Position numbers and translations under genes: made by a program
The notes under the pieces: model-generated
The model's database searches: none
The model's input: the letters and a program-made list of their open reading frames with translations, nothing else
Told to the model about the DNA's origin: nothing
Part shown: positions 1-37,176 of the stretch, one piece after another
Layout: each line of letters starts with the position of its first letter
Position numbering within the stretch: position 1 is the first letter of the stretch
Source: an uncultured Bacilli bacterium
GTDB lineage: Bacteria; Bacillota_I; Bacilli_A; RF39; UBA660
Assembly (NCBI GenBank): GCA_947588975.1
Contig: CANQAF010000002.1
Location: forward strand, 1 to 44,018
Length of the DNA: 44,018 nt
Direction of reading: 5' to 3'

Positions 1-67
1 AATTTGACAAATTAAAAATTATAAGATACAATGAAGATGTTCTCATAAATAACACAGAGGTGAAAAT

Positions 68-688
68 GTGAAAAAAGAGCACAAAAAAACATGGAAAAAA
101 TGGGGTATGTTTTTTAGTATCTGTCTTATGTTACTTGGAACATTTTGTGTAAAAAATATAATAGATACCAATCCAAAAAAATTATTTGCTGGAAATCAAA
201 ATGATTTTGCATATATGCCAAATAAAAGTACTGTTGTCTTAGAATATCTTCAAAAAGAAGTAGAGAATAAAATTGTATATGATAATTTAACAATGGATCA
301 ATTAATTGAAAAATTAAATCGTTCTTTAAAAGGTAAATTAGCTGGAACTGGAGAACAAATTGCTACAAAAAGTTTAGAATTAGGCATTGATCCATATTTA
401 GCAGTTGCAATCATGTTACATGAAACAGGATGTAATGGTACTTGTAGTAAATTAGTAGAAACATGCAATAATGTTGGTGGTATGAAAGGTAGCCCTGGAT
501 GTAATGGAGGCTCTTATATTCAATATGATACTATCCAACAAGGTATTGATTCTTTTATGAATAATTTATATCGTAATTATATTGCAAAAGGACTTACTAC
601 TCCTGAACAAATTAATGTTAGATATGCAGCAAGTAAAACATGGGCAAGTAAAGTAATTTATTATATTGATAAAATTAAAGCTTCATAA
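68..688 (+). CDS. Membrane-anchored cell-wall hydrolase, glucosaminidase-like (mannosyl-glycoprotein endo-beta-N-acetylglucosaminidase family)
   Basis: GTG start 4 nt after GAGGTGA. The N-terminus is Lys-rich followed by a hydrophobic anchor (MKKEHKKTWKKWGMFFSICLMLLGTFCV). The block LAVAIMLHETG...NNVGGMKG resembles the catalytic-Glu and NN.fGiK motifs of the glucosaminidase domain. A hairpin terminator follows. Confidence 0.55.
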   Translation: MKKEHKKTWKKWGMFFSICLMLLGTFCVKNIIDTNPKKLFAGNQNDFAYMPNKSTVVLEYLQKEVENKIVYDNLTMDQLIEKLNRSLKGKLAGTGEQIATKSLELGIDPYLAVAIMLHETGCNGTCSKLVETCNNVGGMKGSPGCNGGSYIQYDTIQQGIDSFMNNLYRNYIAKGLTTPEQINVRYAASKTWASKVIYYIDKIKAS

Positions 689-704
689 TTCAGAAGCTTT
701 TTTC
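678..704 (+). terminator. Rho-independent terminator
   Basis: AAGCTTC - 8 nt loop - GAAGCTT followed by a T-run. It overlaps the stop codon of the upstream gene. Confidence 0.6.
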
Positions 705-726
705 ATATCATGAATTGGTGAAGTAT

Positions 727-960
727 ATGCGCTTATCGGATTTGCAAAATAAAGATGTTGTAAATATGGAAGACGGGAAAAAAATTGGAAACATTATAGA
801 CGTAATTATTGATAGAGAAGGGAATATGCAATCTCTTATTGTTCAAAAAAATAAATTTATTTCCAACTTTTTTAGTAATAAAGATGAATTAGAGGTAAAA
901 TGGCAACAGATTCAAAAAATTGGTGAAGATGTCATTTTAGTGAGTATGGTAATCTATTAA
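727..960 (+). CDS. YlmC/YmxH-family PRC-barrel sporulation protein
   Basis: MRLSDLQNKDVVNMEDGKKIGNIIDVIIDREGNMQSLIV is the typical N-terminus of this small PRC-barrel family. ATG at 727 with GGTGA upstream is preferred over the TTG at 715 used by the ORF track. Confidence 0.75.
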   Translation: MRLSDLQNKDVVNMEDGKKIGNIIDVIIDREGNMQSLIVQKNKFISNFFSNKDELEVKWQQIQKIGEDVILVSMVIY

Positions 961-991
961 AAAACATGGTATAATGAGATAGGTGATACTT

Positions 992-1996
992 ATGAAAATC
1001 TTATTATATACTGAATTTGAGCATCTGAATAGAAAATCAGGATTAGGAAAAGCAATTCGTCATCAAATGCAAGCATTAACTGAACACCATATTGAATACA
1101 CAACCGATCCAAAATGCAAAGATTACGACATCATCCATATTAATTTTTATGGTCCAAGAAGCTATTTACTTGCAAAAAAAGCTAAAAAAATGAGAAAAAA
1201 GGTCATTTATCATGCGCATTCTACTGAGGAAGATTTTCGCAATTCTTTTATCTTTTCCAACACAATTGCACCATTGTTCAAAAAATGGATCTGCAAATGT
1301 TATCGTTTAGGTGATCATATTATTACACCAACTGAATACTCTAAAAAATTACTTGAAAATTATCATTTAAACCGACCAATTACTGCTATTTCAAATGGTA
1401 TTGATATGCAATTTTTTATGCATGATGAAAAGAAAGGACAAGCTTTTCGTAACGCATATGGATATCAAAAAAACGATAAAGTCATTATGGGCGTAGGACT
1501 TTATTTGGAACGTAAAGGAATTCTCACATTTGTGGAACTTGCCAAACGTATGCCAGAATATAAATTCATTTGGTTTGGTTATTCTCCACTTACATTTTCT
1601 CCTAGAAAAATTAAAAAAGCAGTTCATACAAAACTAGATAATTTAGTATTTGCTGGATATGTAGAACCAGAAATTTTACGTGGAGCATATAGTGGGGCAG
1701 ATTTATATTTATTTCCAACATTAGAAGAAACAGAAGGAATTCCTATTTTAGAAGCATTGACTGCTAAAATTCCAACTATTGTAAATGATATTCCTGTATT
1801 TGAATTTTTAGAAGATAAAAAGGACGTATATAAAGCTAAAACATTAGATGAATGGCAAGAAACCATCCATAACATTCTAACTGGGAAATTACCGTCTTTA
1901 GCAGAAAATGGATACCATAAAGTAGAATCACGTGAAATAAAGTATACTGGTCAACAATTAATTGAACTATATAAAAAAGTCTTAAAGGAAAAGTAG
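992..1996 (+). CDS. GT4-family glycosyltransferase (glycosyl transferase group 1), possibly a diacylglycerol glycolipid synthase
   Basis: GT-B layout with C-terminal E..EGIPILEAL-type motif (LEETEGIPILEALTAKIPTIVNDIP). Extended -10 TGgTATAAT at 967-975 and AGGTGA RBS before ATG 992. The glycolipid role is inferred from resemblance to monoglycosyl-DAG synthases. Confidence 0.7.
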   Translation: MKILLYTEFEHLNRKSGLGKAIRHQMQALTEHHIEYTTDPKCKDYDIIHINFYGPRSYLLAKKAKKMRKKVIYHAHSTEEDFRNSFIFSNTIAPLFKKWICKCYRLGDHIITPTEYSKKLLENYHLNRPITAISNGIDMQFFMHDEKKGQAFRNAYGYQKNDKVIMGVGLYLERKGILTFVELAKRMPEYKFIWFGYSPLTFSPRKIKKAVHTKLDNLVFAGYVEPEILRGAYSGADLYLFPTLEETEGIPILEALTAKIPTIVNDIPVFEFLEDKKDVYKAKTLDEWQETIHNILTGKLPSLAENGYHKVESREIKYTGQQLIELYKKVLKEK

Positions 1997-2037: not shown

Positions 2038-3057
2038 ATGCAACGAAAACTGAATTATGTGATTTGGATTGCAATTCCTATTTTATTGATTCTTTTTGTC
2101 ATTTTCTATTTTTGTACTAAGAATGTAGAAAATACATTTACCAAAAATTTATTTTATATGGATACTTATATTTATATCAAAATAGAAAATCAATCCAAAG
2201 AAAAGGCTGAAGAAGCATTTCAACATATTGAACAAATTTATCAAGAATATCATCAACTTGCCGATCGATATCAAGCATATGATGGTATCAATAATTTATA
2301 TACAATTCATTATAATACAGATCCAAGTGAAACTTTGACACTAGATCCTAGATTATATCAGATGCTTACATTTGGAAAAGAATGGTATGTAATCAGTAAT
2401 GGCAAAATTGACATTAGTATGGGTAATATCATAGATGTTTGGAAACAATATCGAACCACCCAAACAGGAGTTCCAACCTTAGAAGAATTAACGTTAAATG
2501 ATACAGGTTCTATTAAAGATATTGTATTATTAGAAAATAATCAAATTCAAAATACGCATCCTAATATTGATTTAGGAGCAATTGCTAAAGGATATGCTAC
2601 TGAAAAAGTAGGGGAATATCTAGAATCAATTGGAATTACAAATTATATTATCAATGCAGGCGGAAATGTTAAAGTAGGAACCCCATATCAAAAGGAAAAA
2701 TATGCAATTGGTATTGAAGACCCTAATAGTCAATCTGGTGATATCTTTAAAGTAGTCTATGGTCAAAATATAAGTGTAGTGACAAGTGGGGGATATGAGC
2801 GATACTATGAATATAATGGTCAAAAATATCATCATATTATTGATCCAGATACAAATATGCCTAGTAATTGGATGAAAAGTGTTACAATTATTACGAAAGA
2901 TAGTTCCTTAGGAGATATTTTATCTACTTTATTATTTTTATTACCAATTGAAGAAGGACAAGAATTTATAAAACAATTTGATGCAGAAGCAATTTGGTAT
3001 ACAAATGAGGATACTATCATTACATCTGAGGGAATTGAAATTTATGAACAAAAATGA
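2038..3057 (+). CDS. apbE: FAD:protein FMN transferase (ApbE family), membrane-anchored or lipoprotein-like
   Basis: ApbE hallmarks are DLGAIAKGYA, NAGGNV, VVTSGGYERY and HHIIDPDT. It has an N-terminal hydrophobic anchor. An extended -10 (TGTTATAAT) and AAGGTGA RBS lie upstream. Confidence 0.85.
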   Translation: MQRKLNYVIWIAIPILLILFVIFYFCTKNVENTFTKNLFYMDTYIYIKIENQSKEKAEEAFQHIEQIYQEYHQLADRYQAYDGINNLYTIHYNTDPSETLTLDPRLYQMLTFGKEWYVISNGKIDISMGNIIDVWKQYRTTQTGVPTLEELTLNDTGSIKDIVLLENNQIQNTHPNIDLGAIAKGYATEKVGEYLESIGITNYIINAGGNVKVGTPYQKEKYAIGIEDPNSQSGDIFKVVYGQNISVVTSGGYERYYEYNGQKYHHIIDPDTNMPSNWMKSVTIITKDSSLGDILSTLLFLLPIEEGQEFIKQFDAEAIWYTNEDTIITSEGIEIYEQK

Positions 3058-3400
3058 TCAAACATTAATTGGTTGTATTGTAATCATATGTTTATTATTT
3101 ATTGTTACATTGAATCATTCAGATCATAACGTTGCAGTCGTATATTATAAAAATGAAATAATCAAAAAAATTGATCTTTCTTTAGATGACATCAAAGAAT
3201 ATCAAGTAAATGGCGAAAATGGAATAGTAACACTTGAAGTCAATCGAGGACGTATTCGTGTAAAAGATGAAAATAGTCCCTTACATTTATGTTCTAAGCA
3301 AGGATATATTAGTAAAAGTACAGAAAGCATCGTTTGTTTACCAAATAAAATTGTAATACAAATTGAACAAAACAATGATATAGATACGGTGGTAAAATAA
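3044..3400 (+). CDS. NusG domain II-containing small membrane-anchored protein
   Basis: The internal ATG at 3044 overlaps the apbE stop by 14 nt. One N-terminal TM helix is followed by a beta-rich domain (VNGENGIVTLEVNRGRIRVKDENSPLHLCSKQGYI...IVCLPNKIVIQIE) that matches the NusG_II (formerly DUF1312) pattern with conserved Cys residues. Confidence 0.7.
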   Translation: MNKNDQTLIGCIVIICLLFIVTLNHSDHNVAVVYYKNEIIKKIDLSLDDIKEYQVNGENGIVTLEVNRGRIRVKDENSPLHLCSKQGYISKSTESIVCLPNKIVIQIEQNNDIDTVVK

Positions 3401-3401
3401 T

Positions 3402-3896
3402 ATGACATATCAAAAACTTACAAGATTATCTATGTATTTAACGCTAGCTATTATATTCAGTATTCTTGAAAGTATGATTCCGATCAATTATATGATTCCT
3501 GGTATTAAACTAGGTTGTGCGAATATTATTCTTGTGTTAGTACTTTATCAATATGGAATTCGTGAAGCACTTGCGATTGCAGTTTTACGCGTTATATTAA
3601 TGGGTATCTTACGAACAGGATTATTTAGTGTTACTTTTTTCTTTAGTTTATTTGGAACTTTATTTAGTGTTATTAGTATGTACCTTACTAAAAAAACTCA
3701 TTTATCAGTGATAGGAGTTAGTATAGTTGGGGCTATATTTCATAGTATTGGACAATTATTAGCAGCTATGTTATTTTTACATCTTCATATGTTAATCTAT
3801 TATTTACCTTGGATGATACTTGGATCTATTGTAACTGGAATGATTATTGGGTATTTATCGCAATATCTATTAAAGCAACTAGAAAAGACATTGTAA
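3402..3896 (+). CDS. Gx transporter family protein (often annotated heptaprenyl diphosphate synthase component I)
   Basis: The ATG lies 1 nt after the upstream stop (TAAtATG). The product is a small polytopic membrane protein of about 164 aa. Its N-terminal LESMIP...IPGIKLGCANII motif is typical of this family. Confidence 0.7.
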   Translation: MTYQKLTRLSMYLTLAIIFSILESMIPINYMIPGIKLGCANIILVLVLYQYGIREALAIAVLRVILMGILRTGLFSVTFFFSLFGTLFSVISMYLTKKTHLSVIGVSIVGAIFHSIGQLLAAMLFLHLHMLIYYLPWMILGSIVTGMIIGYLSQYLLKQLEKTL

Positions 3897-5217: not shown

Positions 5218-6162
5218 GTGATATATTTATATTATGGGTTGGAATCTTTTTTAATTAAAAAAGAAATAAAATCAATACTTTTAAAAGAACATATCGAAGC
5301 AATTAATCAAAATACGTATGATTTAGAAAATAGTACATTAGATGATATTATTGAAGATGCTTCTACCATGTCTCTTTTTGGTGATAAAAAAGCGATTATT
5401 GTAGAAAATAGCTATATTTTTACGGGAACTACAAATCAAAAATTACCAACTCAAAATATAGATTTATTAAATCAATATTTCCAAAATATAAATAACAATA
5501 CTTTATTATTTTTTATTGTTAACAAAGATAGCATTGATAAACGAAAAAAAATAGTTTCAGAATTAAAAAAAGTAGGCATTATAAAAGAATTTACTACATT
5601 ATCCAATCAATCTGATTATATAAAAACTTTGTTTGAACCCTATCAATTATCATCTTCTGATCTTACTTATTTTCAAGAGAGAGTAGGAAATGATCTTGCA
5701 ACTATAGAACAAGAAATTCAAAAATTAAAAAGTTATAAAGCAGATGATTACAAAATTACCAAACAAGATATTATGGATGTTACTTGTAAAAATGTTGATA
5801 CAGATATTTTTAATTTAATTGATCATATTATTACTGGTAATAAAGCAAAAGCCTTAGAAAGTTACACTATGATGATTCAATTAGGTGAAGAACCTATTAA
5901 AATAGTGATTATGCTTGCGAATCAATTTCGTATCATGTATCAATCAAAGCAAATGTTCAAAAAGGGATATTCAGAAAAAGATATTTCTACTAGATTAAAT
6001 ATTCATCCATATCGTATTAAACTTGCATTACAAAAGAGTCATAATTTTGATGAAGAACTATTATTAGATTATTTAAAAAAATTATCAAATCTAGATTATG
6101 AAATGAAAAGTGGTAAAATTGATAAAAATATTGGTTTAGAACTATTTATTTTAAGTATATAA
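5218..6162 (+). CDS. holA: DNA polymerase III subunit delta
   Basis: GTG start after AGGTGAAG. The N-terminus YLYYG.E.FLI...I and overall size fit HolA. The C-terminal helical domain carries the typical LA.QFR....K motif (IMLANQFRIMYQSKQM). Confidence 0.8.
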   Translation: MIYLYYGLESFLIKKEIKSILLKEHIEAINQNTYDLENSTLDDIIEDASTMSLFGDKKAIIVENSYIFTGTTNQKLPTQNIDLLNQYFQNINNNTLLFFIVNKDSIDKRKKIVSELKKVGIIKEFTTLSNQSDYIKTLFEPYQLSSSDLTYFQERVGNDLATIEQEIQKLKSYKADDYKITKQDIMDVTCKNVDTDIFNLIDHIITGNKAKALESYTMMIQLGEEPIKIVIMLANQFRIMYQSKQMFKKGYSEKDISTRLNIHPYRIKLALQKSHNFDEELLLDYLKKLSNLDYEMKSGKIDKNIGLELFILSI

Positions 6163-6163
6163 A

Positions 6164-6186
6164 AACAACAGAAATCTGTTGTTTTA
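6164..6186. terminator. Bidirectional rho-independent terminator between holA and the pilus ATPase
   Basis: AACAACAG-AAAT-CTGTTGTT flanked by A-runs and T-runs on both sides. Confidence 0.6.
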
Positions 6187-7800
6187 AAAATCCATATTCA
6201 TAAGATCATCATCGTCATTGATATCTGTTAATGGTTCTTTTTTTTCATTTGAGTTTAATGTAGTTGATTCTGATAAATTTTCATCCAAATCAGAAGTAGG
6301 GGATTTAATGTCATCCCAATTAAAATCAAATTTTGAATTTAAATCATCAGTGGTTGTATCTTGATGATCTATAGATGAGATACTTTTTTCTTCATCTACT
6401 GTTTCTTCTTGAGTAGGTTCTAATATCTTCTTTTCTGTAAAAAGTTGTGTAGATTGTTCTTTCAAATTATTTTTATCTTCTTGAATAGGATTTAACATCT
6501 TATTTTCTGTTGAAGATTGTGTGGATTGTTCTTTCGAATTATTATCGTTACTTGATTGAGATATCGAAGTATAATCTAATGCAGATTTCAAGTCATAAGA
6601 TCCACCAACTTTATCATCATTTTCTAATTCAATCAATTTTAATACTTCCTCAAAAGTAGTAAGACCTTCTGCAACCTTTTCAAGACCATCTTCTAATAAA
6701 GTAGTAACATCAGCACTATATACTAATTTACGTAATTGTTCTTTTGGTAAATTACTACTAATTGCATCTTTAATTTCTTGATTCACTAAGAGAACCTCTT
6801 GAATAGCAATACGTCCTTTATAACCATTTCCACATTCTTCACAACCTTCAGTTGTATAGATTTCATCAATATCACGGTGTAATACACGTTTAAATAAATC
6901 TTTTTCATATTGATTTGTTTTTTTCTTTACACGACATTTAGTACATAGACGACGTGCCAATTTTTGTGAAATAATACCTGTTAAAGCACTAGCTAATAAG
7001 TAACGTTCTACTTCCATATCCAATAAACGTTCAATTGTATTTAATGAACTGTTGGTGTGAATTGTAGATAATACAATATGTCCTGTAATTGATGCACGTA
7101 CGGCAATACGTGCTGTTTCAGTATCACGAATTTCTCCAATCATAATTACGTTAGGGTCTTGACGCAAAATAGAACGAAGTGCAGTTGCAAATGTCAAACC
7201 AATTTCGCTATTTGTCTGAACTTGATTAATACCCTCAATATTCATTTCGATAGGGTCTTCTACTGTAATAATATTTGTTTCTTCACGATTTAAACGTTGT
7301 AAAATAGAATATACCGTTGTAGATTTACCAGATCCAGTCGCACCTGTTACTAATATAATTCCATTTGGCAATGAAATCATTTTTAATACTTTTTCGTAAT
7401 TTTTTTCACTAAACCCAAGTGTCTCTAAACCACTAGAACTCATACTATAATCCAAGATACGAATTACTATTTTTTCTCCATCCAAAGTAGGAAGACAAGA
7501 AACACGTAAGTCTAAGTTAATATCTTGTAAAGTAGCTTTAATCGCACCATCTTGTGGTAATCTGGTTTCTGTAATATTCATACCTGAAATGATTTTAATA
7601 CGTGTAATTAAATTCTTTTTGATTGAATTTGGTACTTCTGCATAGTCAATCAAAGCTCCATCAATACGAATACGAATTTTCATATATTGTTCTAATGGAT
7701 CAAAATGAATATCACTTGCGCCTCGTTTACTAGCGTCTACTAAAATATCATTGACAATTTCTACAACCGGTGTTTTATCATAATCGAACTTTCTTAACAT
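6184..7800 (-). CDS. Type IV pilus / competence pseudopilus assembly ATPase (GspE/PilB/ComGA family) with a C-terminal acidic low-complexity tail of about 147 aa
   Basis: Walker A GATGSGKS, Asp box TVEDPIE, Walker B VIMIGEIRD, His box TGHIVLSTIHTN, and tetracysteine CTKC...CEEC. It lacks a long N1 domain, as ComGA does. Residues about 392-538 are Asp/Glu/Ser/Thr/Asn-rich. Confidence 0.9.
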   Translation of the reverse strand: MLRKFDYDKTPVVEIVNDILVDASKRGASDIHFDPLEQYMKIRIRIDGALIDYAEVPNSIKKNLITRIKIISGMNITETRLPQDGAIKATLQDINLDLRVSCLPTLDGEKIVIRILDYSMSSSGLETLGFSEKNYEKVLKMISLPNGIILVTGATGSGKSTTVYSILQRLNREETNIITVEDPIEMNIEGINQVQTNSEIGLTFATALRSILRQDPNVIMIGEIRDTETARIAVRASITGHIVLSTIHTNSSLNTIERLLDMEVERYLLASALTGIISQKLARRLCTKCRVKKKTNQYEKDLFKRVLHRDIDEIYTTEGCEECGNGYKGRIAIQEVLLVNQEIKDAISSNLPKEQLRKLVYSADVTTLLEDGLEKVAEGLTTFEEVLKLIELENDDKVGGSYDLKSALDYTSISQSSNDNNSKEQSTQSSTENKMLNPIQEDKNNLKEQSTQLFTEKKILEPTQEETVDEEKSISSIDHQDTTTDDLNSKFDFNWDDIKSPTSDLDENLSESTTLNSNEKKEPLTDINDDDDLMNMDF

Positions 7801-7906: not shown

Positions 7907-8398
7907 ATGAAAAAAAATAAGAAAGGTTTTACCTTAATGGAAACACTTTTAGTTTCTGCTTTTATCATTGGTACGCTTGTATATTTATTTGTTCAATTTT
8001 CAAACATAAAAACAGTTTATGATACTAGTTTTAAACGTGATACCATCCCTGAAATATATTATGTACAAAACCTTAATTTGTATTTATCTAGTACAGATAT
8101 TAATAAAATTATTTCAGGTTTACAAACCAATAATTATGTAGAAATTGAAAATTGTATATTTACTGTTTCAGGTACAGATTATTGTAAAAAGTTGATGCAA
8201 ATGGCAAACGTAAAAAAAGCAATTGTTGTAAAAGATCAATTATCTGCATTAAAAGAACAACTAAAAAATAGTGCAACCAATCCATTCAGTGAAACAATGT
8301 ATCAATACATTATGGATTTATCTACATTTGATTTAGAGAAAAATCGTCTAATTGTTGAATTTACAAATGGAACAGTTGCTTCGCTAGTCATGAAGTAG
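7907..8398 (+). CDS. Prepilin-type N-terminal cleavage/methylation domain protein (type IV pilin or pseudopilin)
   Basis: MKKNKKG|FTLMETLLV has the class III signal, with Gly-1, Phe+1, Glu+5 and a hydrophobic helix. AAAGGAG RBS. Confidence 0.8.
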   Translation: MKKNKKGFTLMETLLVSAFIIGTLVYLFVQFSNIKTVYDTSFKRDTIPEIYYVQNLNLYLSSTDINKIISGLQTNNYVEIENCIFTVSGTDYCKKLMQMANVKKAIVVKDQLSALKEQLKNSATNPFSETMYQYIMDLSTFDLEKNRLIVEFTNGTVASLVMK

Positions 8399-14359: not shown

Positions 14360-15463
14360 ATGAAAAAAGTTGTTATTGGAATGAGTGGTGGAGTAGATAG
14401 TAGTGTTGCTGCTATTTTATTAAAACAACAAGGATATGATGTTATAGGTTTATTTATGCGTAATTGGGATAGTAGCGTCAATAATGATATTTTAGGGAAT
14501 CCAACTTTACAAAATGATATTTGTCCACAAGAACAAGATTATAATGATGCATTAGCGGTTTGTCAAAAATTGGAAATACCTTTACATCGTGTTGATTTTG
14601 TAAAAGAATATTGGGATTATGTTTTTACATATTTTTTAGATGAACTCAAAAAAGGTAGAACACCTAATCCAGATATCATGTGTAACAAATATATTAAATT
14701 TGATATGTTTGCAAAAAAAGCAAGAGAATTAGGTGCCGATTATATTGCAACAGGTCATTATGCGCGTATGCAAGATGGTAAATTACTTCGTGGAGTGGAT
14801 CGAAATAAAGATCAAACTTATTTCCTTTCACAATTATCAAAAGAGCAATTACAAGATGTTTTATTTCCAATAGGAGATTTAGAAAAAACAGAGGTCAGAA
14901 AAATAGCGTTAGAATATGATTTGATTACAGCCAAAAAGAAAGATTCAACTGGTATTTGTTTTATTGGAGAACGTAATTTTACTAATTTTCTAAAAAATTA
15001 TTTACCTAATTTACCTGGTAAAATCATTAATATTGAAACCAATCAAGAAGTAGGGGAACATATTGGGTTGATGTATTATACAATTGGTCAAAGAAGAGGA
15101 CTTCATTTAGGTGGAAATGACAACAGATTTTTCGCAGTAGGAAAAGATTTAAAACAGAATATATTATATGTTGCTGAAGGAGAGGAAAATCCTTATTTAT
15201 ATAGTGACTCCTGCATAGTGGAAATGGTTAATTGGATAGGTGATCGGGTATCTGATTGCACTGCAAAATTTCGTTATCGTCAACCAGATAATGAAGTGCA
15301 TATTACTCACTTAGAAAATGGTGAACTACTTGTTTCTTATCCTCAAACTGTAAAATCTGTAACACCTGGGCAAGCTTGTGTATTTTACAATAATGAAGAG
15401 TGCCTTGGTGGAGGAATTATTAAAGAAGTTCGAAAAAATGGAAAAAAATTATGGTATTTATAG
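14360..15463 (+). CDS. mnmA: tRNA 2-thiouridine(34) synthase
   Basis: PP-loop VVIGMSGGVDSSVAA plus RTPNPDIMCN, ATGHYAR, KDQTYFL and DSTGICFIGE. ATG at 14360 is preferred over the TTG at 14348. Extended -10 TGGTATAAT upstream. Confidence 0.95.
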   Translation: MKKVVIGMSGGVDSSVAAILLKQQGYDVIGLFMRNWDSSVNNDILGNPTLQNDICPQEQDYNDALAVCQKLEIPLHRVDFVKEYWDYVFTYFLDELKKGRTPNPDIMCNKYIKFDMFAKKARELGADYIATGHYARMQDGKLLRGVDRNKDQTYFLSQLSKEQLQDVLFPIGDLEKTEVRKIALEYDLITAKKKDSTGICFIGERNFTNFLKNYLPNLPGKIINIETNQEVGEHIGLMYYTIGQRRGLHLGGNDNRFFAVGKDLKQNILYVAEGEENPYLYSDSCIVEMVNWIGDRVSDCTAKFRYRQPDNEVHITHLENGELLVSYPQTVKSVTPGQACVFYNNEECLGGGIIKEVRKNGKKLWYL

Positions 15464-15533
15464 TATACTTTTACTTTACACTTGACAATTGACATAAAAA
15501 TTACTACAATGATAGTAGGAGGTTTTATGATAT

Positions 15534-23269: not shown

Positions 23270-23329
23270 CGTCTTTTTATTTTTATAATGAATAAAATAT
23301 TGATTGATTCCATATATTGGTATTAAAAT

Positions 23330-23357
23330 TTGACAAATTCAAAAAACATGTTATAAT
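23330..23357 (+). promoter_or_regulatory. Sigma-A-type promoter with extended -10
   Basis: TTGACA (23330-23335), 16-nt spacer, TGtTATAAT (23349-23357). Confidence 0.5.
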
Positions 23358-23391
23358 AGCAGACATTCATAAGAAAAAAGGGGGTATTTTT

Positions 23392-23580
23392 ATGAAAATT
23401 AACTGGAATAAAGTGTGTTATTTAGTATTAGGTTCTATTGCAATCGCACTTGCAGCAATTCTATCTGCCCTACTATTATTAACAGACTATACAGTACTTA
23501 CTTATATATCTTTCTTTGGAACATATTTATTTGGAATTTATTTTATGAAAACACAAAGAAAATATAAACTTATGAAATAA
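23392..23580 (+). CDS. Small two-TM membrane protein (62 aa), hypothetical
   Basis: GGGGGT RBS before ATG 23392. Two hydrophobic helices. Promoter upstream and terminator downstream. Confidence 0.5.
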   Translation: MKINWNKVCYLVLGSIAIALAAILSALLLLTDYTVLTYISFFGTYLFGIYFMKTQRKYKLMK

Positions 23581-23604
23581 ACCAACTTTAATAGTTGGTT
23601 TTTA
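23580..23604. terminator. Bidirectional terminator
   Basis: AACCAACT-TTAAT-AGTTGGTT followed by TTT, between convergent genes. Confidence 0.65.
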
Positions 23605-23607
23605 TGT

Positions 23608-24492
23608 TTAATTATAAGATTCTAATGTGATTTTAGCTTTTCCATTTCCAGATTGAACTCCATTTTTTGTTTCAGTAGTTCCTGCAATTAACCAAGACAT
23701 ATTAAGGTAACCAGAGCCTCCTCCACCACCGTAGTAGTCGCAAGCGCCACCGCCGCCATACCAGCCGCCGCCTCCGCCACAGGATCCTTTACCTTTACCA
23801 CCTTGACCAAAAGTTCCATTATTTCCGCAGCCCCAACCACCATTAGTTTGAGAGCCTCCCTGTGCACTATTATTATTATTTGTACCTCCAGTAGTTCCAC
23901 CACCAGTTCCTCCTATAAATTCTGATCCAAGGTAAACTTGATGAACACTACCTCCTCCTCCACCTGCAACAATGATTACATCGCTTTGATAAGAACTATA
24001 ATTTTTTAATTCTCCATGATCTGTAATAGCAATATGGGTAGCTCCTCCACCAGATGTAGCACCGGTATATGTGTTACCATTATTATCACCATATTGTCCA
24101 CCACCATTATATGGAATTCCACCTACAACAATATACAATGATTGATCTTTATTTAATGAAATATTCCCATAAGAATATCCACCTTTTCCTCCTGGTGCTG
24201 CCGAATTACTAGTACCACCTTGAGAACCCCATACTTCTAATTTGTATATTCCATCACATGAGGCAGTCCATTCTGCTACTTTCCCTTGATATACAAAATC
24301 CCATGATGTTCCTAATTCAATATCACAAATATCTGTTTCATTTGAATCTTCTAACTGTTGTTTGGTTTCGTTTTTTAACTCATCTAATATCATTTTACGA
24401 CTTTGCGTATTACTTAATATTCCTATTAATAATACTAAAAATAATAAAAGTAATGTATAAATAATAGCACTCGTTGCAAATCCTTTTTTCAT
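23608..24492 (-). CDS. Prepilin-like N-terminus fused to a glycine-rich domain (ALK/LTK-GRD-like pattern); last gene of the pilC-pilD operon
   Basis: GGAGAGGAG RBS. N-terminus MKKG|FATSAIIYTLLLLFLVLLIGIL. Ordered Gly blocks are YKLEVWGSQGG, GGKGGYSYGNISLNKDQSLYIVVGG, GGGATHIAI, IIVAGGGGGS, GGGGGWYGGGG, GGGGGSGYLN and GNGKAKITL. Confidence 0.8.
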   Translation of the reverse strand: MKKGFATSAIIYTLLLLFLVLLIGILSNTQSRKMILDELKNETKQQLEDSNETDICDIELGTSWDFVYQGKVAEWTASCDGIYKLEVWGSQGGTSNSAAPGGKGGYSYGNISLNKDQSLYIVVGGIPYNGGGQYGDNNGNTYTGATSGGGATHIAITDHGELKNYSSYQSDVIIVAGGGGGSVHQVYLGSEFIGGTGGGTTGGTNNNNSAQGGSQTNGGWGCGNNGTFGQGGKGKGSCGGGGGWYGGGGACDYYGGGGGSGYLNMSWLIAGTTETKNGVQSGNGKAKITLESYN

Positions 24493-24513
24493 ATTATTTT
24501 CTCCTCTCCAATA

Positions 24514-25311
24514 TTATCGTGTTAATAGTTTTACTATAAATTGAAAATCAATTTGACTTAATAATAGTAAAATGGAAGATATTGCTAGAAATGGTCCAAA
24601 TGGAATACTATGTTCTGGGATTTCATCATCTTCTATATATTTTTGATCTTTATTTCGCAGTACAAAACAAATTGCAACTGGTAAAGCAATAAAAGATGCA
24701 ACAAAAATGGAAATAATTGCAATGGGATATCCTAATACAAGTCCCAGTAGAAACATGAGTTTAATATCTCCACCACCCATAGATTCCTTATGGAACAGAA
24801 AATCGCCAATCTTTTTTAAACAAAACATTGTAATAAAAGCTAATATTCCTTCACTCATGGAATATAGAGTACTTTTCCAACCGTATCCAATTAGAAGTAA
24901 AACAATCAGAACAATTGAACTAAAAATAAGTACTTCATCTGGAATAATCATTGTTTGATAATCACTAATAATAATAATTAATAAACTTGAAATAAATACT
25001 AATGCAATTGCAAGTTCTATTGAAAATCCAAATAATCGATAACTGATTGCGAATAATAAACCTGAAGTAAATTCAAATATAGGATAAAAAAATGATATTT
25101 TTTCCTTACAATTTTTACATTTACCTCCTAAAAATATATACGAAAAAATAGGGACTAATTCACTTGCCCCTAATTTATGATTACATTTTGTGCAATGTGA
25201 AGATGGAAATAACAATGATTCTCCTTTTGGTAAACGGTACCCAACCACATTATAAAATGATCCAAGTACTGCTCCAAATACAAACATAACTACTGTATAA
25301 TATATTTCCAT
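24514..25311 (-). CDS. Prepilin peptidase / N-methyltransferase (A24 family, PilD/ComC)
   Basis: Four Cys as two pairs, HCTKCNH...GKCKNCK. Catalytic-Asp regions IISDYQTMIIPD and GGGDIKLM. ATG 25311 with AGGTGG 8 nt upstream is preferred over GTG 25323. Confidence 0.9.
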   Translation of the reverse strand: MEIYYTVVMFVFGAVLGSFYNVVGYRLPKGESLLFPSSHCTKCNHKLGASELVPIFSYIFLGGKCKNCKEKISFFYPIFEFTSGLLFAISYRLFGFSIELAIALVFISSLLIIIISDYQTMIIPDEVLIFSSIVLIVLLLIGYGWKSTLYSMSEGILAFITMFCLKKIGDFLFHKESMGGGDIKLMFLLGLVLGYPIAIISIFVASFIALPVAICFVLRNKDQKYIEDDEIPEHSIPFGPFLAISSILLLLSQIDFQFIVKLLTR

Positions 25312-25327
25312 GCTTTCAACCACCTAC

Positions 25328-27190
25328 TCACCCATAATTTTGAATTGTAGAATACATACCAAACATTGGTACGACAATTGCAAGAACAATAATACCAACC
25401 ACTACTGTTAAGAATATTGTTAACATTGGTTCAATGAATGTTTTAATTCTTGTAACTGATTCTTTATGTAATTCTTGATAATATGATGACACTTTTGCCA
25501 TCATTTCTGCTAATTCACCTGTTTTTTCTCCAGTGACTAACATTTCATATGCTGGAATTGGGAATGCCCAATGTCCTGCAAACGCAGTAGAAATTTTATC
25601 TCCCTTTGCCAAATTGGTAATGGTATCTAGAATTAACATTTTATAAATTTCATTATTGGTAATTTTATTTAAAATTTCCATACTGTCTGTAATAAAAACA
25701 TTATGTGCCAACAAAGAAGAGAAAGTTTTTGTAAACATTGTAACTTCATTATAAATTACTGTATCACCAAAGACTGGTAAATGCATTACAACCCATTGTA
25801 CAATTGTTCTAAATCCTCTTACTTTCTTATATAAGTACATAAATATTACAACAAATAATACAATACCAATAATCAAAAGTACAATATAATTTTGTAAAAA
25901 GTCACTAACTGCAATAACTGCTCTCGTGAATGCTGGAATTTGATTTTCATCAAGATTTGTATAAATTTCCACAAATTGAGGAATTACGAACATCATGATG
26001 AAAGTAATAACTGCAACTGAAAATACAAATACAAGAGATGGATACATCATTGCTGTGATCATTTGTTTTCTTGTCTTTTCAGTTTCTGTATAATAATCAT
26101 ACATGTCATCTAATACTTCTGGTAATTCTCCAGTCATTTCAGCTGTTTTTACCATGTTAATGAATAATCGAGGGAAAGCAACATTTTGTTTATTTAAAGC
26201 TTCACTGAAATTTTCTCCCATCGTTAAATCATAAATAATGGCTTTAAATATTTTTTGATATTTTTTGCTTTTAAATTGTCTTGATAATATTTTTAATGCT
26301 TCTACAAGTGGAATACCAGCTTTCAAATAGGTAGATAATTGTGTAATAAAGAAAATCAAATCTTTGGTTTTAATACGTACATTATTGGTTCTATTTTGAC
26401 CATGTAAGAAAATTTCCCATTTGCTTGCTTTTTTAATGCTATATACTTCAAATCCTTCTCCTAATAAATAAGAATGTACTTCTACTTTAGAAAAAGCTTC
26501 GAAATAATCTTTTATAACATGTCCTTCTTCATCTTTGGCTACATATTGATATAACTCTTTGGTTTCACTTTTTTGCGCATCTTCCCCATCAAAATCAATT
26601 AATAGAGCTTCTCGTTGCATCAAACGCTTATTACGTCGATGTTTTGCGAAATCATTATTAAAAATTTTATTATGAAACCACTCTGGAATATGATTCAGTT
26701 TATTCAACATTTTTTTCATTTTTTGGAAAAAAGTTTCTTTTTCAATCTTGACGTTTTCATTTACATAGATATCATTATCTTTACTCTTTTTTTCTTCAGA
26801 TACTATTTTAGTTTCTTTTTTATGAGAAACTTTTTTTACTTTTTCTTTTTTCTTTGGCAAAAGTTTATGTAGTAAAAATGGAATCATCAAAAAAATTGTG
26901 ACAATTCCTTTGAAAAAATAGTAAGCTAATCGATATGTTAAATAACAAACATAGAGTATACCTTTGAACATATAGCGAAACATTTGATAAATCCAATAAC
27001 AAACACAAGAACATCCATAAATAAAATATTTAAAGATAAATGCGAATGCTGTTGTGATAAAAAGAATTGCAAAATAAATCGTATATGCTGTTCCTAAACA
27101 AAAATATTTGATTAAAAAGATTGGTATATTTAGTAGTGTTGTAATTAATTGATATATGAATGTAAATACCTGATTGTTCATTTTCTGCAT
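25328..27190 (-). CDS. Type II secretion system F family platform protein (PilC/ComGB) with an N-terminal polytopic extension of about 200 aa
   Basis: Two T2SSF repeats (FFITQLSTYLKAGIPLVEAL...; FTKTFSSLLAHNVFITDSMEIL...) and the typical soluble N-domain (YQYVAKDEEGHVIKDYFEAFSKVEVHSYLLGEGFEVYSI). Residues 1-200 add aromatic/Cys-rich TM helices and a Lys-rich linker. Confidence 0.85.
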   Translation of the reverse strand: MQKMNNQVFTFIYQLITTLLNIPIFLIKYFCLGTAYTIYFAILFITTAFAFIFKYFIYGCSCVCYWIYQMFRYMFKGILYVCYLTYRLAYYFFKGIVTIFLMIPFLLHKLLPKKKEKVKKVSHKKETKIVSEEKKSKDNDIYVNENVKIEKETFFQKMKKMLNKLNHIPEWFHNKIFNNDFAKHRRNKRLMQREALLIDFDGEDAQKSETKELYQYVAKDEEGHVIKDYFEAFSKVEVHSYLLGEGFEVYSIKKASKWEIFLHGQNRTNNVRIKTKDLIFFITQLSTYLKAGIPLVEALKILSRQFKSKKYQKIFKAIIYDLTMGENFSEALNKQNVAFPRLFINMVKTAEMTGELPEVLDDMYDYYTETEKTRKQMITAMMYPSLVFVFSVAVITFIMMFVIPQFVEIYTNLDENQIPAFTRAVIAVSDFLQNYIVLLIIGIVLFVVIFMYLYKKVRGFRTIVQWVVMHLPVFGDTVIYNEVTMFTKTFSSLLAHNVFITDSMEILNKITNNEIYKMLILDTITNLAKGDKISTAFAGHWAFPIPAYEMLVTGEKTGELAEMMAKVSSYYQELHKESVTRIKTFIEPMLTIFLTVVVGIIVLAIVVPMFGMYSTIQNYG

Positions 27191-27304
27191 AGTTAGACAC
27201 CGTCCAATTCCCTATTTTTATACTATATAGATTATACTATAAAAAAGATTATTTGTAAAATATTTTTTAGTAGATCATATAATATTTTAGAAAGGAGTTC
27301 TATT

Positions 27305-34382: not shown

Positions 34383-36527
34383 TCATTGACTCTTAAGATC
34401 ATATCCTATTTTGGATTCATCGTTTTTTATACAAGTTTTTATACTGAATTGATTATTTTTGATTTGAAACATAATACTTCCGTTTTGATCTGTTCTATAT
34501 ATATTAGAATTTTTCAAATTTTCTAAAACTTCAAGATCAGGATGACCATACCGATTATTTTCACCTACGCTGATCACTGAATAGTTAGGATGAATCCAAT
34601 TGATAAATTGGTTACTACTACTTGTCTTACTTCCATGGTGCCCAATTTTTAACACATCAATATTACTTAAACGATATGTATTTATTATATCGTTTTCTTT
34701 ATCAATTCCAGCATCCCCCATCAATAAAAATTGATATTGATTAAATTTCATATAAATAACACTACTGTTATCATTTTCATTACCATATATTTTTGTATTT
34801 AAAAAATATAGTTTATGATGATCTATGTTTAACTCACTTAAACAACTATAATAAGGAATTTGTTTATTTTTTAATACTTTGAGTAATTCTTCTTCTAATT
34901 CATTTCGTTCACCACAATTTAAAATTACTTTTTTGACTTTAAAATGATTCACTAAATCAATAGCAGCACCCATATGGTCATAATCTCCATGTGTTAATAT
35001 AAGATAATCCAAGTGATGGATCCCAACTGATTTCATATAAGGAATTAAGGTAGATTCCGCAAGTGTCATATTGTTTCTTTTTTTCCATGTTTCATGTTCA
35101 TAATTTAAAATACCACCTGTATCAATTAAAATATTTCCTCTTTGATTAGGAAACATCACAAGTGTAGAATCTCCTTGACCTACATCTAACATTGTAACTG
35201 TGAAATGGCAATTGAAAAAAGCGATAAAATAATAAAAAACTAGAAACAATATTAAGCAAAGAAATGGTTTTCGTTTTTTGAGTAACCAACATTTTAATGT
35301 ATAAAGAATCCATAATAATATAATCGGTAATAAAATAGATGGATAATCGGAAAATGGTACTATAAAAAAGGTTATATGATTTGTTATATCAATCATCGTT
35401 TCTAATATGATTTGGAAAAATGTAAAAATAGGTCGTAACCAAGGAATCCAAACAGAAAAAAAACAAATTGGAAATAACAAAATTGATACAAATGGTACAA
35501 ACAATATATTCCAAATAGGTGCTAAAAAATTTATGGTAAAAAAGGAATGAATTAAAATAGGAACACCCATCCAAAAAGAAATCCATGAAGTTTGCCATAA
35601 CTGCTTTATGTATGATTGTTTTGTTTGAAAACGGCTTAAATATAGTAAAGAGAAACTAATCGTAAAACTAAATACAAAGCCCAAGTGATACACATAAAAT
35701 GGATTATAAATTAACATTCCTAATGCAATACCTATCAGTATCATTAAAGGTTCCCAGTGTAAATGATATATCTTCTTTAATAATAAAATTAAAAAGAAAA
35801 TACTAGCGCGTATGATCGATGGACTAAAATTGGTTAAGAACATATAGAATCCAAGAAAAATTGTCAAAAAAATCCATTCTACTTTTCTATTTTTTACAAT
35901 TTTAGAAAGTATCCATGTCAATATACTTGCTAGTAAATGGATATGCATACCTGAAATTGCGAATAAATGACTAATTCCTAACATCTGAACTTTTTGAAGA
36001 AATGCATCATCCATATTATTAGAATCACCTAATAACAAATAGTAAAAATATTGAGCATTCTTTTGTTTTGCTAATAACTGATAAAATTGATTTTTCCATT
36101 GATATAAAATATTTTTATTTTTGCTTTTTAATTGTATTTGATCGCTATTCATAACCCAATTTATTTTCTTAGATTTTAAGTATTTTTGATAATGAAATAG
36201 ATGAAAATTACGATTTTGCATTGGAAATTTTAATATACCTTTTACCAATATGTGATCCCCAATTTGATATATATGATAAAAATTTTGTTTTTCTTCTTCT
36301 GTTTTAAAATAATAATTTACAAGTATTTTTTCTTTTGCTTTTAGTTCTATTTTTAATTGATCACCATTGATTTGATAGGATAAGATTTTTCCGGTAATGG
36401 ATGTTTCATTTCCTATATATGCACTATGTGTATAAAACAATCGTATCAGAAAAATAAGGATTAAAACAAACCATAATACACTATAATGTAATTTGTTCTT
36501 TAATTTTTTCAAATAATGCATCGCCAA
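34383..36527 (-). CDS. comEC: DNA internalization-related competence protein ComEC/Rec2
   Basis: N-terminal OB/DUF4131 region, polytopic competence domain (GISHLFAISGMHI) and C-terminal metallo-beta-lactamase (MLDVGQGDS, LTHGDYDHMG, GHHGS). The start overlaps the comEA 3' end, so the exact start is uncertain. Confidence 0.9.
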   Translation of the reverse strand: MAMHYLKKLKNKLHYSVLWFVLILIFLIRLFYTHSAYIGNETSITGKILSYQINGDQLKIELKAKEKILVNYYFKTEEEKQNFYHIYQIGDHILVKGILKFPMQNRNFHLFHYQKYLKSKKINWVMNSDQIQLKSKNKNILYQWKNQFYQLLAKQKNAQYFYYLLLGDSNNMDDAFLQKVQMLGISHLFAISGMHIHLLASILTWILSKIVKNRKVEWIFLTIFLGFYMFLTNFSPSIIRASIFFLILLLKKIYHLHWEPLMILIGIALGMLIYNPFYVYHLGFVFSFTISFSLLYLSRFQTKQSYIKQLWQTSWISFWMGVPILIHSFFTINFLAPIWNILFVPFVSILLFPICFFSVWIPWLRPIFTFFQIILETMIDITNHITFFIVPFSDYPSILLPIILLWILYTLKCWLLKKRKPFLCLILFLVFYYFIAFFNCHFTVTMLDVGQGDSTLVMFPNQRGNILIDTGGILNYEHETWKKRNNMTLAESTLIPYMKSVGIHHLDYLILTHGDYDHMGAAIDLVNHFKVKKVILNCGERNELEEELLKVLKNKQIPYYSCLSELNIDHHKLYFLNTKIYGNENDNSSVIYMKFNQYQFLLMGDAGIDKENDIINTYRLSNIDVLKIGHHGSKTSSSNQFINWIHPNYSVISVGENNRYGHPDLEVLENLKNSNIYRTDQNGSIMFQIKNNQFSIKTCIKNDESKIGYDLKSQ

Positions 36528-37176
36528 TTCCTTTGATTTCTTTTAATTCTTCAATGGATGAAAATGGCTTTTTGGTTCGGTATTCTATAATGGTTTTTGC
36601 TTTACTTGCTCCAATTCCTGGTAATGTTTCTAATTGTTCTTGCGTAGCATTATTAATAGATATTTTTTGGGATGAAGAAGGTAGCTCATTTTCTTGACTA
36701 GATTCCATACATGCATCATTGATAGAATCAGGACATGTACATTCAGGTTCAACATATACATATTCTATTTTAGTTTGGGCTTCATTTAAAGCTGCAATTT
36801 GCTCTTTTGTATATATAATGATTACCATTTCATCTGTTACATGCTTACTTAAATTAATTCTAGATAAATCTGCATTTTCAAGTGTACCACCAGCTTGATA
36901 AATAACATCATTAACTCTAGAACCTTCGCGCATCTCATATACACCTGGTGATGATACTGCTCCTTTAATATCTACACGAATCACTTCAGGTGTAGTTTGT
37001 TCTATTTTTGGTGTTTCAAAAGTAGCTTGTGTGATTTCTTCTTGAATTTCTCCACTACTAGCTTTTGATTTTGGTATTAAACATACTAAACCAATTAATA
37101 TGACCAAACAACAGGACCCAAAAATACAAATTTCTTTCCGATAATAATAAAAATATCTTCGTAATTTTTCTTTCAT
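36481..37176 (-). CDS. comEA: Competence protein ComEA (membrane-anchored DNA receptor)
   Basis: TM anchor, SLBB-like VDIKGAVSSPGVYEM..GSRVNDVI..AGG and C-terminal helix-hairpin-helix INNATQEQLETLPGIGASKAKTIIEYR...F.SIEELKEIKGIG. GAGGAGGTG RBS. Confidence 0.85.
   Translation of the reverse strand: MKEKLRRYFYYYRKEICIFGSCCLVILIGLVCLIPKSKASSGEIQEEITQATFETPKIEQTTPEVIRVDIKGAVSSPGVYEMREGSRVNDVIYQAGGTLENADLSRINLSKHVTDEMVIIIYTKEQIAALNEAQTKIEYVYVEPECTCPDSINDACMESSQENELPSSSQKISINNATQEQLETLPGIGASKAKTIIEYRTKKPFSSIEELKEIKGIGDALFEKIKEQITL

Follow-up and report, generated by a model that had tools for sequence, protein, structure and literature searches.

A Glu5-less, prepilin-like protein with a hypervariable ALK/LTK-type glycine-rich domain, encoded behind pilC and pilD in an uncultured Bacilli bacterium

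The last gene of a pilC-pilD operon of an uncultured Bacilli bacterium, here called X, encodes a protein in which a prepilin-like N-terminus is followed by a glycine-rich body. It lies in GenBank assembly GCA_947588975.1, contig CANQAF010000002.1, of which positions 1 to 44,018 (forward strand) were analysed; this whole stretch is called the window. The locus raises the question of whether a protein lacking the glutamate of canonical prepilins at mature position 5 (Glu5) belongs to a type IV filament, and what its glycine-rich domain (GRD) would do there. The evidence given below argues that X is probably a modular minor type IV pilin, processed by the prepilin peptidase PilD, devoid of Glu5 and reduced in its pilin part to the α1 helix, which caps the filament and presents a variable GRD adhesin. 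A preliminary description, based on the letters of the window, had proposed a similar role; the glycine blocks, the leader, the two further prepilins, the 21-nt gap and the ribosome-binding site (RBS) which it quoted are all found in the window. The gene and the parts of its product are placed as follows.

23608..24492, minus strand: the whole of gene X, 294 aa, with an ATG start and the stop codon at 23608..23610 (gene and strand from the open reading frame (ORF) listing of the window)
24481..24492, minus strand: putative class III leader MKKG, with prepilin-peptidase cleavage predicted after Gly4 from the conservation in the family
24346..24480, minus strand: carrier helix, residues 5-49, a hydrophobic α1N-like stretch (FATSAIIYTLLLLFLVLLIGIL) and then the juxtamembrane segment N-x-Q-x-[RK]-K-x-I-L-D-x-L-K
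24307..24345, minus strand: short acidic linker, residues 50-62, with Cys56; its predicted local distance difference test (pLDDT) in the model is 75-79, lower than in the flanks
23611..24306, minus strand: ALK/LTK-type GRD, residues 63-294 (Pfam match over residues 81-290, Foldseek, and a family profile against PDB sequences)

Residues 63-294 of X are a genuine ALK/LTK-type GRD. Glycine makes up 28% of these residues, and the glycine blocks are YKLEVWGSQGG, GGKGGYSYGNISLNKDQSLYIVVGG, GGGATHIAI, IIVAGGGGGS, GGGGGWYGGGG, GGGGGSGYLN and GNGKAKITL. X matches the Pfam family PF12810 (ALK_LTK_GRD) with 92.5 bits, against a gathering score of 24.5, and E = 5.2e-26; a single colinear match joins residues 81-290 of X to positions 8-242 of the 243 positions of the profile, and the ALK/LTK-like body of the preliminary description is confirmed. 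When a profile of 84 homologues was run against all PDB sequences, only chains of ALK, LTK and the nematode SCD-2 were found (E from 9e-12 to 1e-10). The single sequence of X gave no match in phmmer against PDB, and the family profile is needed to reach ALK and LTK. An AlphaFold2 (AF2) model of X, built on the alignment of the 84 homologues, has a mean pLDDT of 94 and a predicted template modelling score (pTM) of 0.81, and shows a domain of β-strands and coil at residues 63-293. In Foldseek against PDB the model obtained 21 matches with E from 9e-10 to 1e-6 and probability 1.00, all of them to ALK/LTK GRDs, while the next match had E = 1.2. In ALK and LTK, the GRD has a TNF-like β core onto which polyglycine-II helices are packed as a lattice. 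In the model of X, edge β-strands are accompanied by long glycine stretches which are neither helix nor strand and have a pLDDT of 96-99, a picture compatible with such a lattice. Codon 63 is also the point where the homology to the GRD of a class A gene, described below, begins.

The N-terminus of X reads MKKG|FATSAIIY..., with MKKGFATSAIIYTLLLLFLVLLIGIL present. MKKG|F is followed by 22 uncharged residues, which is the geometry of a class III signal peptide, and position +5 is occupied by Ala, that is, Glu5 is absent. Residues 5-49 form a single continuous helix in the AF2 model. X combines a prepilin-like leader with the absence of Glu5, which is the hallmark of cap subunits. Type IV tip complexes are indeed capped by a Glu5-less subunit, as in GspK/PilK and in PilA of Streptococcus sanguinis (PMC9934059, PMC10191384), in agreement with the rule on which the first proposal of a tip position was based. 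In the same S. sanguinis system, PilA has a degenerate Glu5-less signal peptide, missed by prediction tools, and the pilin moiety of PilC is unusually short (PMC9934059, PMC10191384).

The carrier, that is, the first ~50 residues of X, defines a large family. A profile of these residues only, searched against 1.84 billion representatives, retrieved 2286 of them at E ≤ 1e-3 and 492 at E ≤ 1e-10. Most members are 170-220 aa long and are not GRD proteins, and near-identical N-termini (MKKKGFATSAILYTMLLLFLVLLVGILNNLQNKKTILDQLK) are joined to unrelated C-terminal halves. In the 142 best representatives the leader is conserved to a degree that bears out the KKGF signature: Lys at -2 in 94%, Gly at -1 in 100%, Phe at +1 in 98%, Ala at +2 in 98%, Tyr at +8 in 100%, Phe at +14 in 99% and Leu at +22 in 98%. 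The leader is 3-9 aa long in 135 of the 142, and in none of them is Glu5, or any Asp or Glu in positions +1 to +22, present. The hydrophobic stretch is followed by a conserved segment N-x-Q-N-[RK]-K-x-I-L-D-x-L-K. Such conservation is typical of a recognition or assembly signal; an invariant Gly-Phe after a short basic leader is required in substrates of prepilin peptidases and not in a plain anchor.

In a search of 103 carrier proteins against Pfam and NCBIfam, no model for the carrier was found and the cargo domains alone matched. The cargo is a GRD in 19 proteins, the phage baseplate domain Gp10_C in six, DUF6273 in five, a ConA-like lectin in two and an Ig-like domain in two, with single cases of trans-sialidase-C, Flg_new and others; about two thirds have no domain assignment. 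One member has a phage tail/tail-fibre head (PHROG E down to 2e-31). Judged from these assignments, the cargo (GRD, Gp10_C, lectin, Ig-like, tail-fibre heads) is of the binding type. With a tighter carrier alignment, a single metagenome locus (L091) was found, whereas viral contigs gave no match; there is thus no evident sign that phages bear the carrier. The carrier paralogues P0133, P0139, P0141, P0145 and P0012 have a coiled-coil-like stalk, the motif (T/S)DIS.I.(D)GTITGA and a small variable head. The stalks resemble the shafts of phage tail fibres and hint at trimerisation, which would alter the model of assembly. Carrier genes can also stand in tandem: in L093, from a relative of the window organism, two non-GRD carrier genes of 229 and 181 aa are located at 2396..3127 and 3273..3851.

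The filament genes of the window and the signals around X are the following.

24501..24509, minus strand: strong RBS GGAGAGGAG, 8 nt 5′ of the ATG of X and within the 21-nt spacer between pilD and X (direct sequence reading)
24514..25323, minus strand: pilD, a bifunctional A24 prepilin peptidase of the PilD/ComC type with its N-terminal domain (PF06750, E = 1.4e-32; PF01478, E = 1.5e-15)
25328..27190, minus strand: pilC, a platform protein of the PilC/GspF type (PF00482 in two stretches, E = 3e-49; GspF model TIGR02120, 278 bits)
27231..27259, minus strand: promoter-like site upstream of pilC, TTTACA-17-TATAAT, 11/12 (consensus scan only)
23579..23601, no strand assigned: hairpin between convergent genes, 3′ of X (terminator-like scan, in which the T-run was scored on the plus strand only)
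6184..7800, minus strand: assembly ATPase with a GspE/PilB core (PF00437, E = 1.5e-126)
7907..8398, plus strand: Glu5 prepilin pil1 (KKG|FTLME), linked by phmmer to pil1::GRD proteins of 475-594 aa
8412..8975, plus strand: Glu5 prepilin pil2 (KRG|FTLIE), PF07963 with 28.1 bits, above the gathering score

X is the third and last gene of pilC-pilD-X, with spacers of 4 nt between pilC and pilD and 21 nt between pilD and X. The place at the end of the operon, as first described, is upheld by these spacers, by the promoter-like site and by the 3′ hairpin, which is likely the end of the transcript. When every ORF of the window with 40 aa or more was scanned for the N-terminal pattern, prepilin-like N-termini turned up in pil1, pil2 and X only.

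A strong indication that the GRD is connected to this filament comes from fusions in related genomes. The classes of homologues were read from the best 120 of the 1302 homologues of X. At least 21 of these 120 (class A) have the canonical KKG|FTLIE start of a prepilin and, behind it, a pilin body, in many cases an Ig-like domain, and finally a GRD; their N-termini score above the gathering score of PF07963, and one is named at NCBI as a prepilin-type cleavage/methylation protein. Another 18 (class B) share the Glu5-less N-terminus of X. The class A protein P0005 is 65% identical to pil2 of the window in its N-terminal half (E = 3e-75) and ends in a GRD. Its model (pLDDT 90) is a pilin lollipop, with a helix at 8-64, a β head at 66-154, a linker and the GRD; a fold search with this model gave only GRD matches and a non-significant match to S. 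sanguinis PilB (E = 0.26). In three loci from metagenome-assembled genomes (MAGs; L051, L054 and L078) the order is contiguous: pilC, pilD, pilB (reversed), a pil1 homologue fused to a GRD (475-594 aa) and a pil2 homologue. The order in L035 is pilB, a pilin and a prepilin::GRD fusion. Since homologues of both prepilins of the window are fused to GRDs elsewhere, the GRD is a pilus cargo in this lineage. The fusions are strong Rosetta-stone evidence, drawn from sequence, that the separately encoded GRD protein would work with the filament of the window. Further large modular Glu5 pilins are encoded in relatives of the window organism, as in L089, where two of them (494 and 385 aa, at 44..1552 and 5517..6761) are scattered among sporulation genes.

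The view that a fusion of a prepilin with a GRD had not been described has to be corrected. Datasets S1/S2 of Raynaud et al. 2021 (PMC8179133) list the architecture IPR012902-PF12810 for two proteins, a three-copy form for one, and PilY1 with PF12810, none of which is discussed there. Literature searches on the function of bacterial GRDs and on PF12810 gave nothing relevant beyond that supplementary table.

The genes that combine the Glu5-less carrier with a GRD are found in these arrangements.

pilC-pilD-X: the window and L001 (same species); L004/5 (a more distant lineage, PilC 79% identical)
X followed by the genes of a Glu5 prepilin and of a pil2-like prepilin: L020 and L040, with the same two genes downstream as after pil2 of the window
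prepilin::GRD and then X, in tandem: L002/13/3
isolated among housekeeping genes: 8 lineages (L006/7, L009/10, L039, L071, L091, L095/96, L097/98 and L099)

The carrier::GRD gene adjoins pilD or prepilin genes in five of the 13 lineages, in three independent arrangements. This linkage is by far above the expectation for a random gene, yet it is not universal. A prophage origin of X was considered and ruled out, as its flanks are conserved housekeeping genes with identical synteny in the relatives.

A comparison of close relatives located the variation of X in one block.

23640..24260, minus strand: hypervariable cassette of ~620 bp within the GRD, interrupted by a conserved island at 23986..24045

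Between the window and L001 the flanking DNA is 98-100% identical at the nucleotide level over 5.5 kb, whereas the cassette is only 30-65% identical, with indels and sharp boundaries. At the amino acid level the identity is 99.5% for PilC, 98.9% for PilD and 100% for residues 1-62 of X, against 64% for the GRD. Judged by these identities, the window and L001 are of the same species. Within the GRD, conserved glycine blocks alternate with ~10 variable segments, among them residues 94-100, 133-147, 182-193, 206-238 and 249-270. Compared from codon 63 through the stop codon (705 nt), the GRD of the window is 90% identical in nucleotides to that of a class A, Glu5 pilin gene (P0002/L089), whose assembly comes from the metagenome sample that also yielded L001. 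The carriers of P0002 and P0019 are 97% identical and their GRDs 62%. The Ig+GRD cargo of the class A type is found on a Glu5 carrier (P0002) as well as on Glu5-less carriers (P0170, L091). The 90% match to the gene of a Glu5 pilin, together with these mosaics of alleles and carriers, indicates that GRD cassettes move between carriers and strains. A diversity-generating retroelement was rejected as the source of the variation on account of the indels, the sharp-edged block replacement and the 90%-identical, donor-like class A copy. The mosaicism suggests a role of the tips in specificity towards hosts, glycans or cells of the gut.

On these grounds the following mechanism is proposed. The prepilin peptidase encoded upstream would remove the short basic leader MKKG, and the mature protein would consist of an N-terminal Phe, a single α1-type helix of ~45 residues, a short linker and a rigid GRD of ~230 residues. 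It would be loaded first and would cap a filament which the PilB-like ATPase and the PilC platform assemble from Glu5 pilins, namely pil1, pil2 and PilA-like pilins with genes elsewhere. The capping position is proposed because X has no Glu5 to neutralise the N-terminus of the subunit above it and because the GRD is bulky. At the tip, the GRD would serve as a variable adhesin or receptor-binding module, with the glycine blocks as scaffold; the ~10 variable segments would set the specificity for its ligand and would be exchanged when the gene recombines with GRD paralogues. In L088, from a relative of the window organism, two PilA-like pilins of ~160 aa (14373..15504) could be the major subunits that the window lacks.

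Several observations speak against the assignment of X to a pilus tip. The N-terminus of X has no match to the profiles PF07963, TIGR02532, ComGG, GspK and PilX, even at E ≤ 10, and its 71 N-terminal residues alone have none in Pfam at E ≤ 10. For the cap family GspK/PilK (PF03934, NF037980) and for ComGG, no Pfam/NCBIfam match was found for X or for the 103 carrier relatives. The AF2 model shows no pilin β-sheet head, and the GRD starts after a linker of 13 residues; with no β head between helix and GRD, the "pilin" part of X is only the α1 helix, and a plain signal anchor would look similar. The ALK/LTK structures are the sole significant PDB matches of the model, but the superposition on them is moderate (TM-score 0.38-0.47, root-mean-square deviation 7-11 Å). 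With regard to the neighborhood, the survey of homologues refutes the notion that they are never linked to pilus genes, but eight of the 13 lineages have the carrier::GRD gene inserted on its own among housekeeping genes, without a pilus gene beside it, and neither of two non-GRD carrier loci which were examined is linked to such genes. Some of the cargo (coiled coils, Gp10_C and tail-fibre heads) is trimeric in phages, which is unusual for a pilin.

The most likely of the alternatives is that X is an uncleaved N-terminal signal anchor, i.e., a type II bitopic membrane protein that exposes a GRD or another head at the surface without any filament, its place next to pilD being due to co-regulation or chance. 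The missing pilin profile, Glu5 and pilin head would fit it, as would the fact that most members of the family are scattered single genes without pilus neighbors; the juxtamembrane segment and the coiled-coil stalks of the paralogues would suit a membrane-anchored fibre. Nevertheless, it seems unlikely. An anchor gives no reason for residues -1, +1 and +2 to be conserved at 98-100% and -2 at 94%, behind a leader of 3-9 residues, across unrelated ectodomains. Nor does it account for the three independent arrangements beside pilD or prepilin genes, or for the identical cargo carried by, and exchanged with, bona fide Glu5 prepilins. In addition, the organism has a cell wall, and therefore a GRD placed 13 residues off the membrane would be buried in peptidoglycan.

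A second alternative accepts the processing by PilD and disputes the capping. X could be a membrane-proximal receptor or part of a short pseudopilus, comparable to the archaeal class III sugar-binding proteins, or it could form a homotrimeric tip of the CofB/TcpB type rather than a monomeric one like GspK. The signal-peptide conservation is accounted for as well here as by a cap, and the machinery is minimal, with ATPase, platform and peptidase only; both the window and the L051 cluster, which is contiguous, are devoid of PilMNO and PilT. A trimeric form would agree with the many paralogues with coiled-coil stalks and with the heads of phage type (Gp10_C and the tail-fibre PHROGs), which form trimers in phages, and a trimeric CofB at the tip of the T4b pilus is cited in PMC8179133. 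However, X itself has no coiled-coil stalk, its helix 5-49 being followed by the GRD. The ALK/LTK GRD fold is not known to be trimeric, which also counts against this form. We consider this alternative improbable.

The relation of the filament to competence was considered on the basis of its machinery and of two further genes.

34383..36527, minus strand: ComEC, with Competence and Lactamase_B domains (TIGR00361, 256 bits, above the cut-off of 190)
36481..37176, minus strand: ComEA, with SLBB and HHH_3 domains; ComEC and ComEA lie ~10 kb from the pilC-pilD operon

The ATPase has no PilB/GspE N-terminal domain, its match beginning at position 176 of the PilB profile, and ends in an acidic tail of ~150 residues rich in Ser, Asn and Asp. 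It scores ~488 bits with the GspE and PilB models and 268 bits with ComGA (cut-off 300), all below the equivalog cut-offs, and thus assigns the filament to no subtype. PilC reaches 147 bits with ComGB, below the cut-off of 240. The prepilins pil1 and pil2 show weak N-terminal matches to ComGD, ComGE and ComGF, and the ComGC and ComGG equivalogs found no match among the proteins of the window. With ComEC and ComEA in the window, the organism probably takes up DNA, and its minimal type IV machine may thus serve in competence as well. The holA gene (DNA polymerase III delta, 5218..6162, plus strand) directly adjoins the ATPase gene. In Bacillus subtilis holA lies downstream of comEC, and its place beside a competence-like ATPase may be a relic of a comEC-holA arrangement.

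These features are the basis of the weakest alternative, in which X is a ComGG-like tip subunit of a Com-type competence pilus and the GRD a receptor for DNA. ComEC and ComEA, the ATPase without the PilB N-terminal domain, the Com-like minimal machinery and the ComGD/ComGE/ComGF matches are in its favor, yet it is very improbable: the ComGA, ComGB and ComGG models are below cut-off or absent, the Com pili of monoderms bind DNA through the ComGD-ComGF interface and not ComGG (PMC12153270), fimbrillins and phage tail proteins, neither of which binds DNA, carry GRDs too, and a DNA receptor should be conserved, whereas it is the GRD, and no other block, that is hypervariable when near-identical strains are compared. 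For the last reason the DNA-receptor role, offered earlier as one option, has become unlikely. The filament could serve competence while the GRD serves adhesion.

GRDs are also found on other filaments. Homologues of the GRD of X are fused to Mfa-like fimbrillins (PF13149) of Bacteroidales, and others occur with Flg_new repeats. Against the phage proteins of BFVD the model of X has 124 matches at E ≤ 1e-3, the best of them at 32% identity and a TM-score of 0.62-0.64, and the uncharacterised PHROGs 7388, 5811 and 1589 match the GRD with E from 1e-28 to 1e-32. On fimbrillins, phage structural proteins and PilY1, the GRD is in all cases in a distal binding position. In Prevotella/Segatella (L008, L021, L026, L060 and L086), 5-8 paralogous lipoprotein genes of ~550-620 aa, with PF13149 and a C-terminal GRD, are arranged in tandem; such arrays look like a repertoire of type V pilus tip adhesins that share the GRD module. 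In MAGs of Bacilli, the N-termini MKKTTILLITVLFMVIGYAAYNATVNIYGN... (L011, L030, L036, L042, L073, L082) and MKREYKVIMLLVLIISIVALVLTSSYALFSFEEKG... (L014, L018, L035, L043) precede GRD proteins of 650-830 aa, which often form tandem pairs. These N-termini (IGYAAYN.. and SSYALFS..) resemble, and may be, signals of the SipW/TasA type, for which NCBIfam gives no support.

A broader reading can be put forward tentatively, and we hold it to be possible rather than probable. The KGFA...Y carrier would be an unrecognised and very large family of Glu5-less cap pilins of uncultured gut Bacilli, for which neither Pfam nor NCBIfam has a model and which comprises at least 2286 clusters (50% identity). Its varied heads (GRD, lectin, phage tail-fibre/baseplate and others) would be interchangeable tips for one minimal Com-like type IV machine. 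The heads, and GRD cassettes especially, would recombine between Glu5-less and Glu5 carriers in the way that phages shuffle receptor-binding proteins. The animal ligand-binding domain of ALK/LTK would then descend from, or share ancestry with, a module of microbial or phage filament-tip adhesins.

Among known systems, the modular pilins of S. sanguinis, i.e., PilB with a vWA domain and PilC with a ConA-like lectin (PMC8179133, PMC9934059), resemble X in having a binding module, a short linker and an N-terminal pilin carrier, as well as in the predicted tip position and the monoderm host; the pilin moiety of S. sanguinis PilC is short too. Unlike them, X lacks Glu5, the IPR012902/PF07963 signature and a globular pilin head. 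The class A proteins P0002, P0005 and P0021, on the other hand, are textbook modular pilins. A GRD on a pilus has never been characterised, and carrier-to-carrier exchange of cassettes is unreported for modular pilins. With GspK/PilK/XcpX, ComGG and S. sanguinis PilA, X shares the prepilin-like leader ending in Gly, a hydrophobic α1N without Glu5 and the expectation of being loaded first and placed topmost. It has no sequence-profile relation to GspK (NF037980), ComGG or PilX_N. Moreover, the known caps have pilin heads of their own (with an inserted α-domain in GspK), whereas the head of X is replaced by interchangeable cargo and its paralogues are many.

The GRDs of ALK and LTK (PF12810; PDB 7NX1, 7LRZ, 7MZY and 7LIR) share with X the colinear glycine blocks and are its sole significant structural neighbors. 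In contrast to these, the domain of X is bacterial, is smaller (~230 aa), has no kinase or EGF-like module and is ~15-22% identical; the animal ligands, the ALKAL cytokines, cannot be the ligand of X. The Gp38 protein of phages is a polyglycine-II sandwich that binds receptors as a monomer at the distal tip, and its glycine motifs have been proposed as hotspots of recombination for modular shuffling (PMC12032242). Gp38 of T-even phages and S16 is similar to the GRD of the window in the alternation of conserved glycine motifs with hypervariable segments, and the GRD of the window also shows mosaic recombination. This likeness is an analogy only; the structural matches among phages are other uncharacterised GRD proteins. 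The type V fimbrillin-GRD proteins of Bacteroidales and the PilY1-GRD proteins likewise have the GRD at the C-terminus of a subunit of another filament system, but the fimbrillins differ from X in carrier, phylum and assembly (lipoprotein and strand exchange).

Modular pilins and Glu5-less caps are already established as principles. What appears to be new is that the Glu5-less, head-less carrier forms a large family which has no annotation and whose cargo is polymorphic. That the pil1::GRD and pil2::GRD fusions and the separate carrier::GRD gene are distributed in a complementary way appears to be new as well. The same applies, it appears, to the exchange of cassettes between Glu5 and Glu5-less carriers, and to the finding that GRDs converge on the tips of three filament types. 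If the proposed role of X is true, the GRDs of bacteria and phages gain a first concrete function, that of hypervariable modules which bind at a distal position of type IV pili, type V fimbriae and phage tails, and the concept of the modular pilin extends to a carrier reduced to a Glu5-less α1 helix. A single cap subunit with swappable heads would also be a testable prediction for tip assembly. As current pilin detectors all miss the Glu5-less, head-less form, the pilin repertoires of gut Firmicute MAGs would then be under-counted.

As for the host, the window includes genes for the GPR protease, SpoIIM and SpoIVB, and its Mur, LtaS and Spo genes indicate that the organism makes a cell wall and spores; it is a spore-forming Firmicute. 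Its relatives are gut MAGs labelled "Bacilli bacterium". The 3′ end of X is abutted by a small convergent ORF (23317..23580, plus strand) of 87 aa with two predicted transmembrane segments, which had no match in family searches and is conserved in L001 and L004. Finally, residues 1-200 of PilC are an unusual N-terminal extension of ~200 residues, aromatic and hydrophobic, with several predicted transmembrane segments and then a Lys-rich stretch. It precedes both T2SSF domains, and the PilC homologues of L051 (703 aa) and L078 (583 aa) are extended too.

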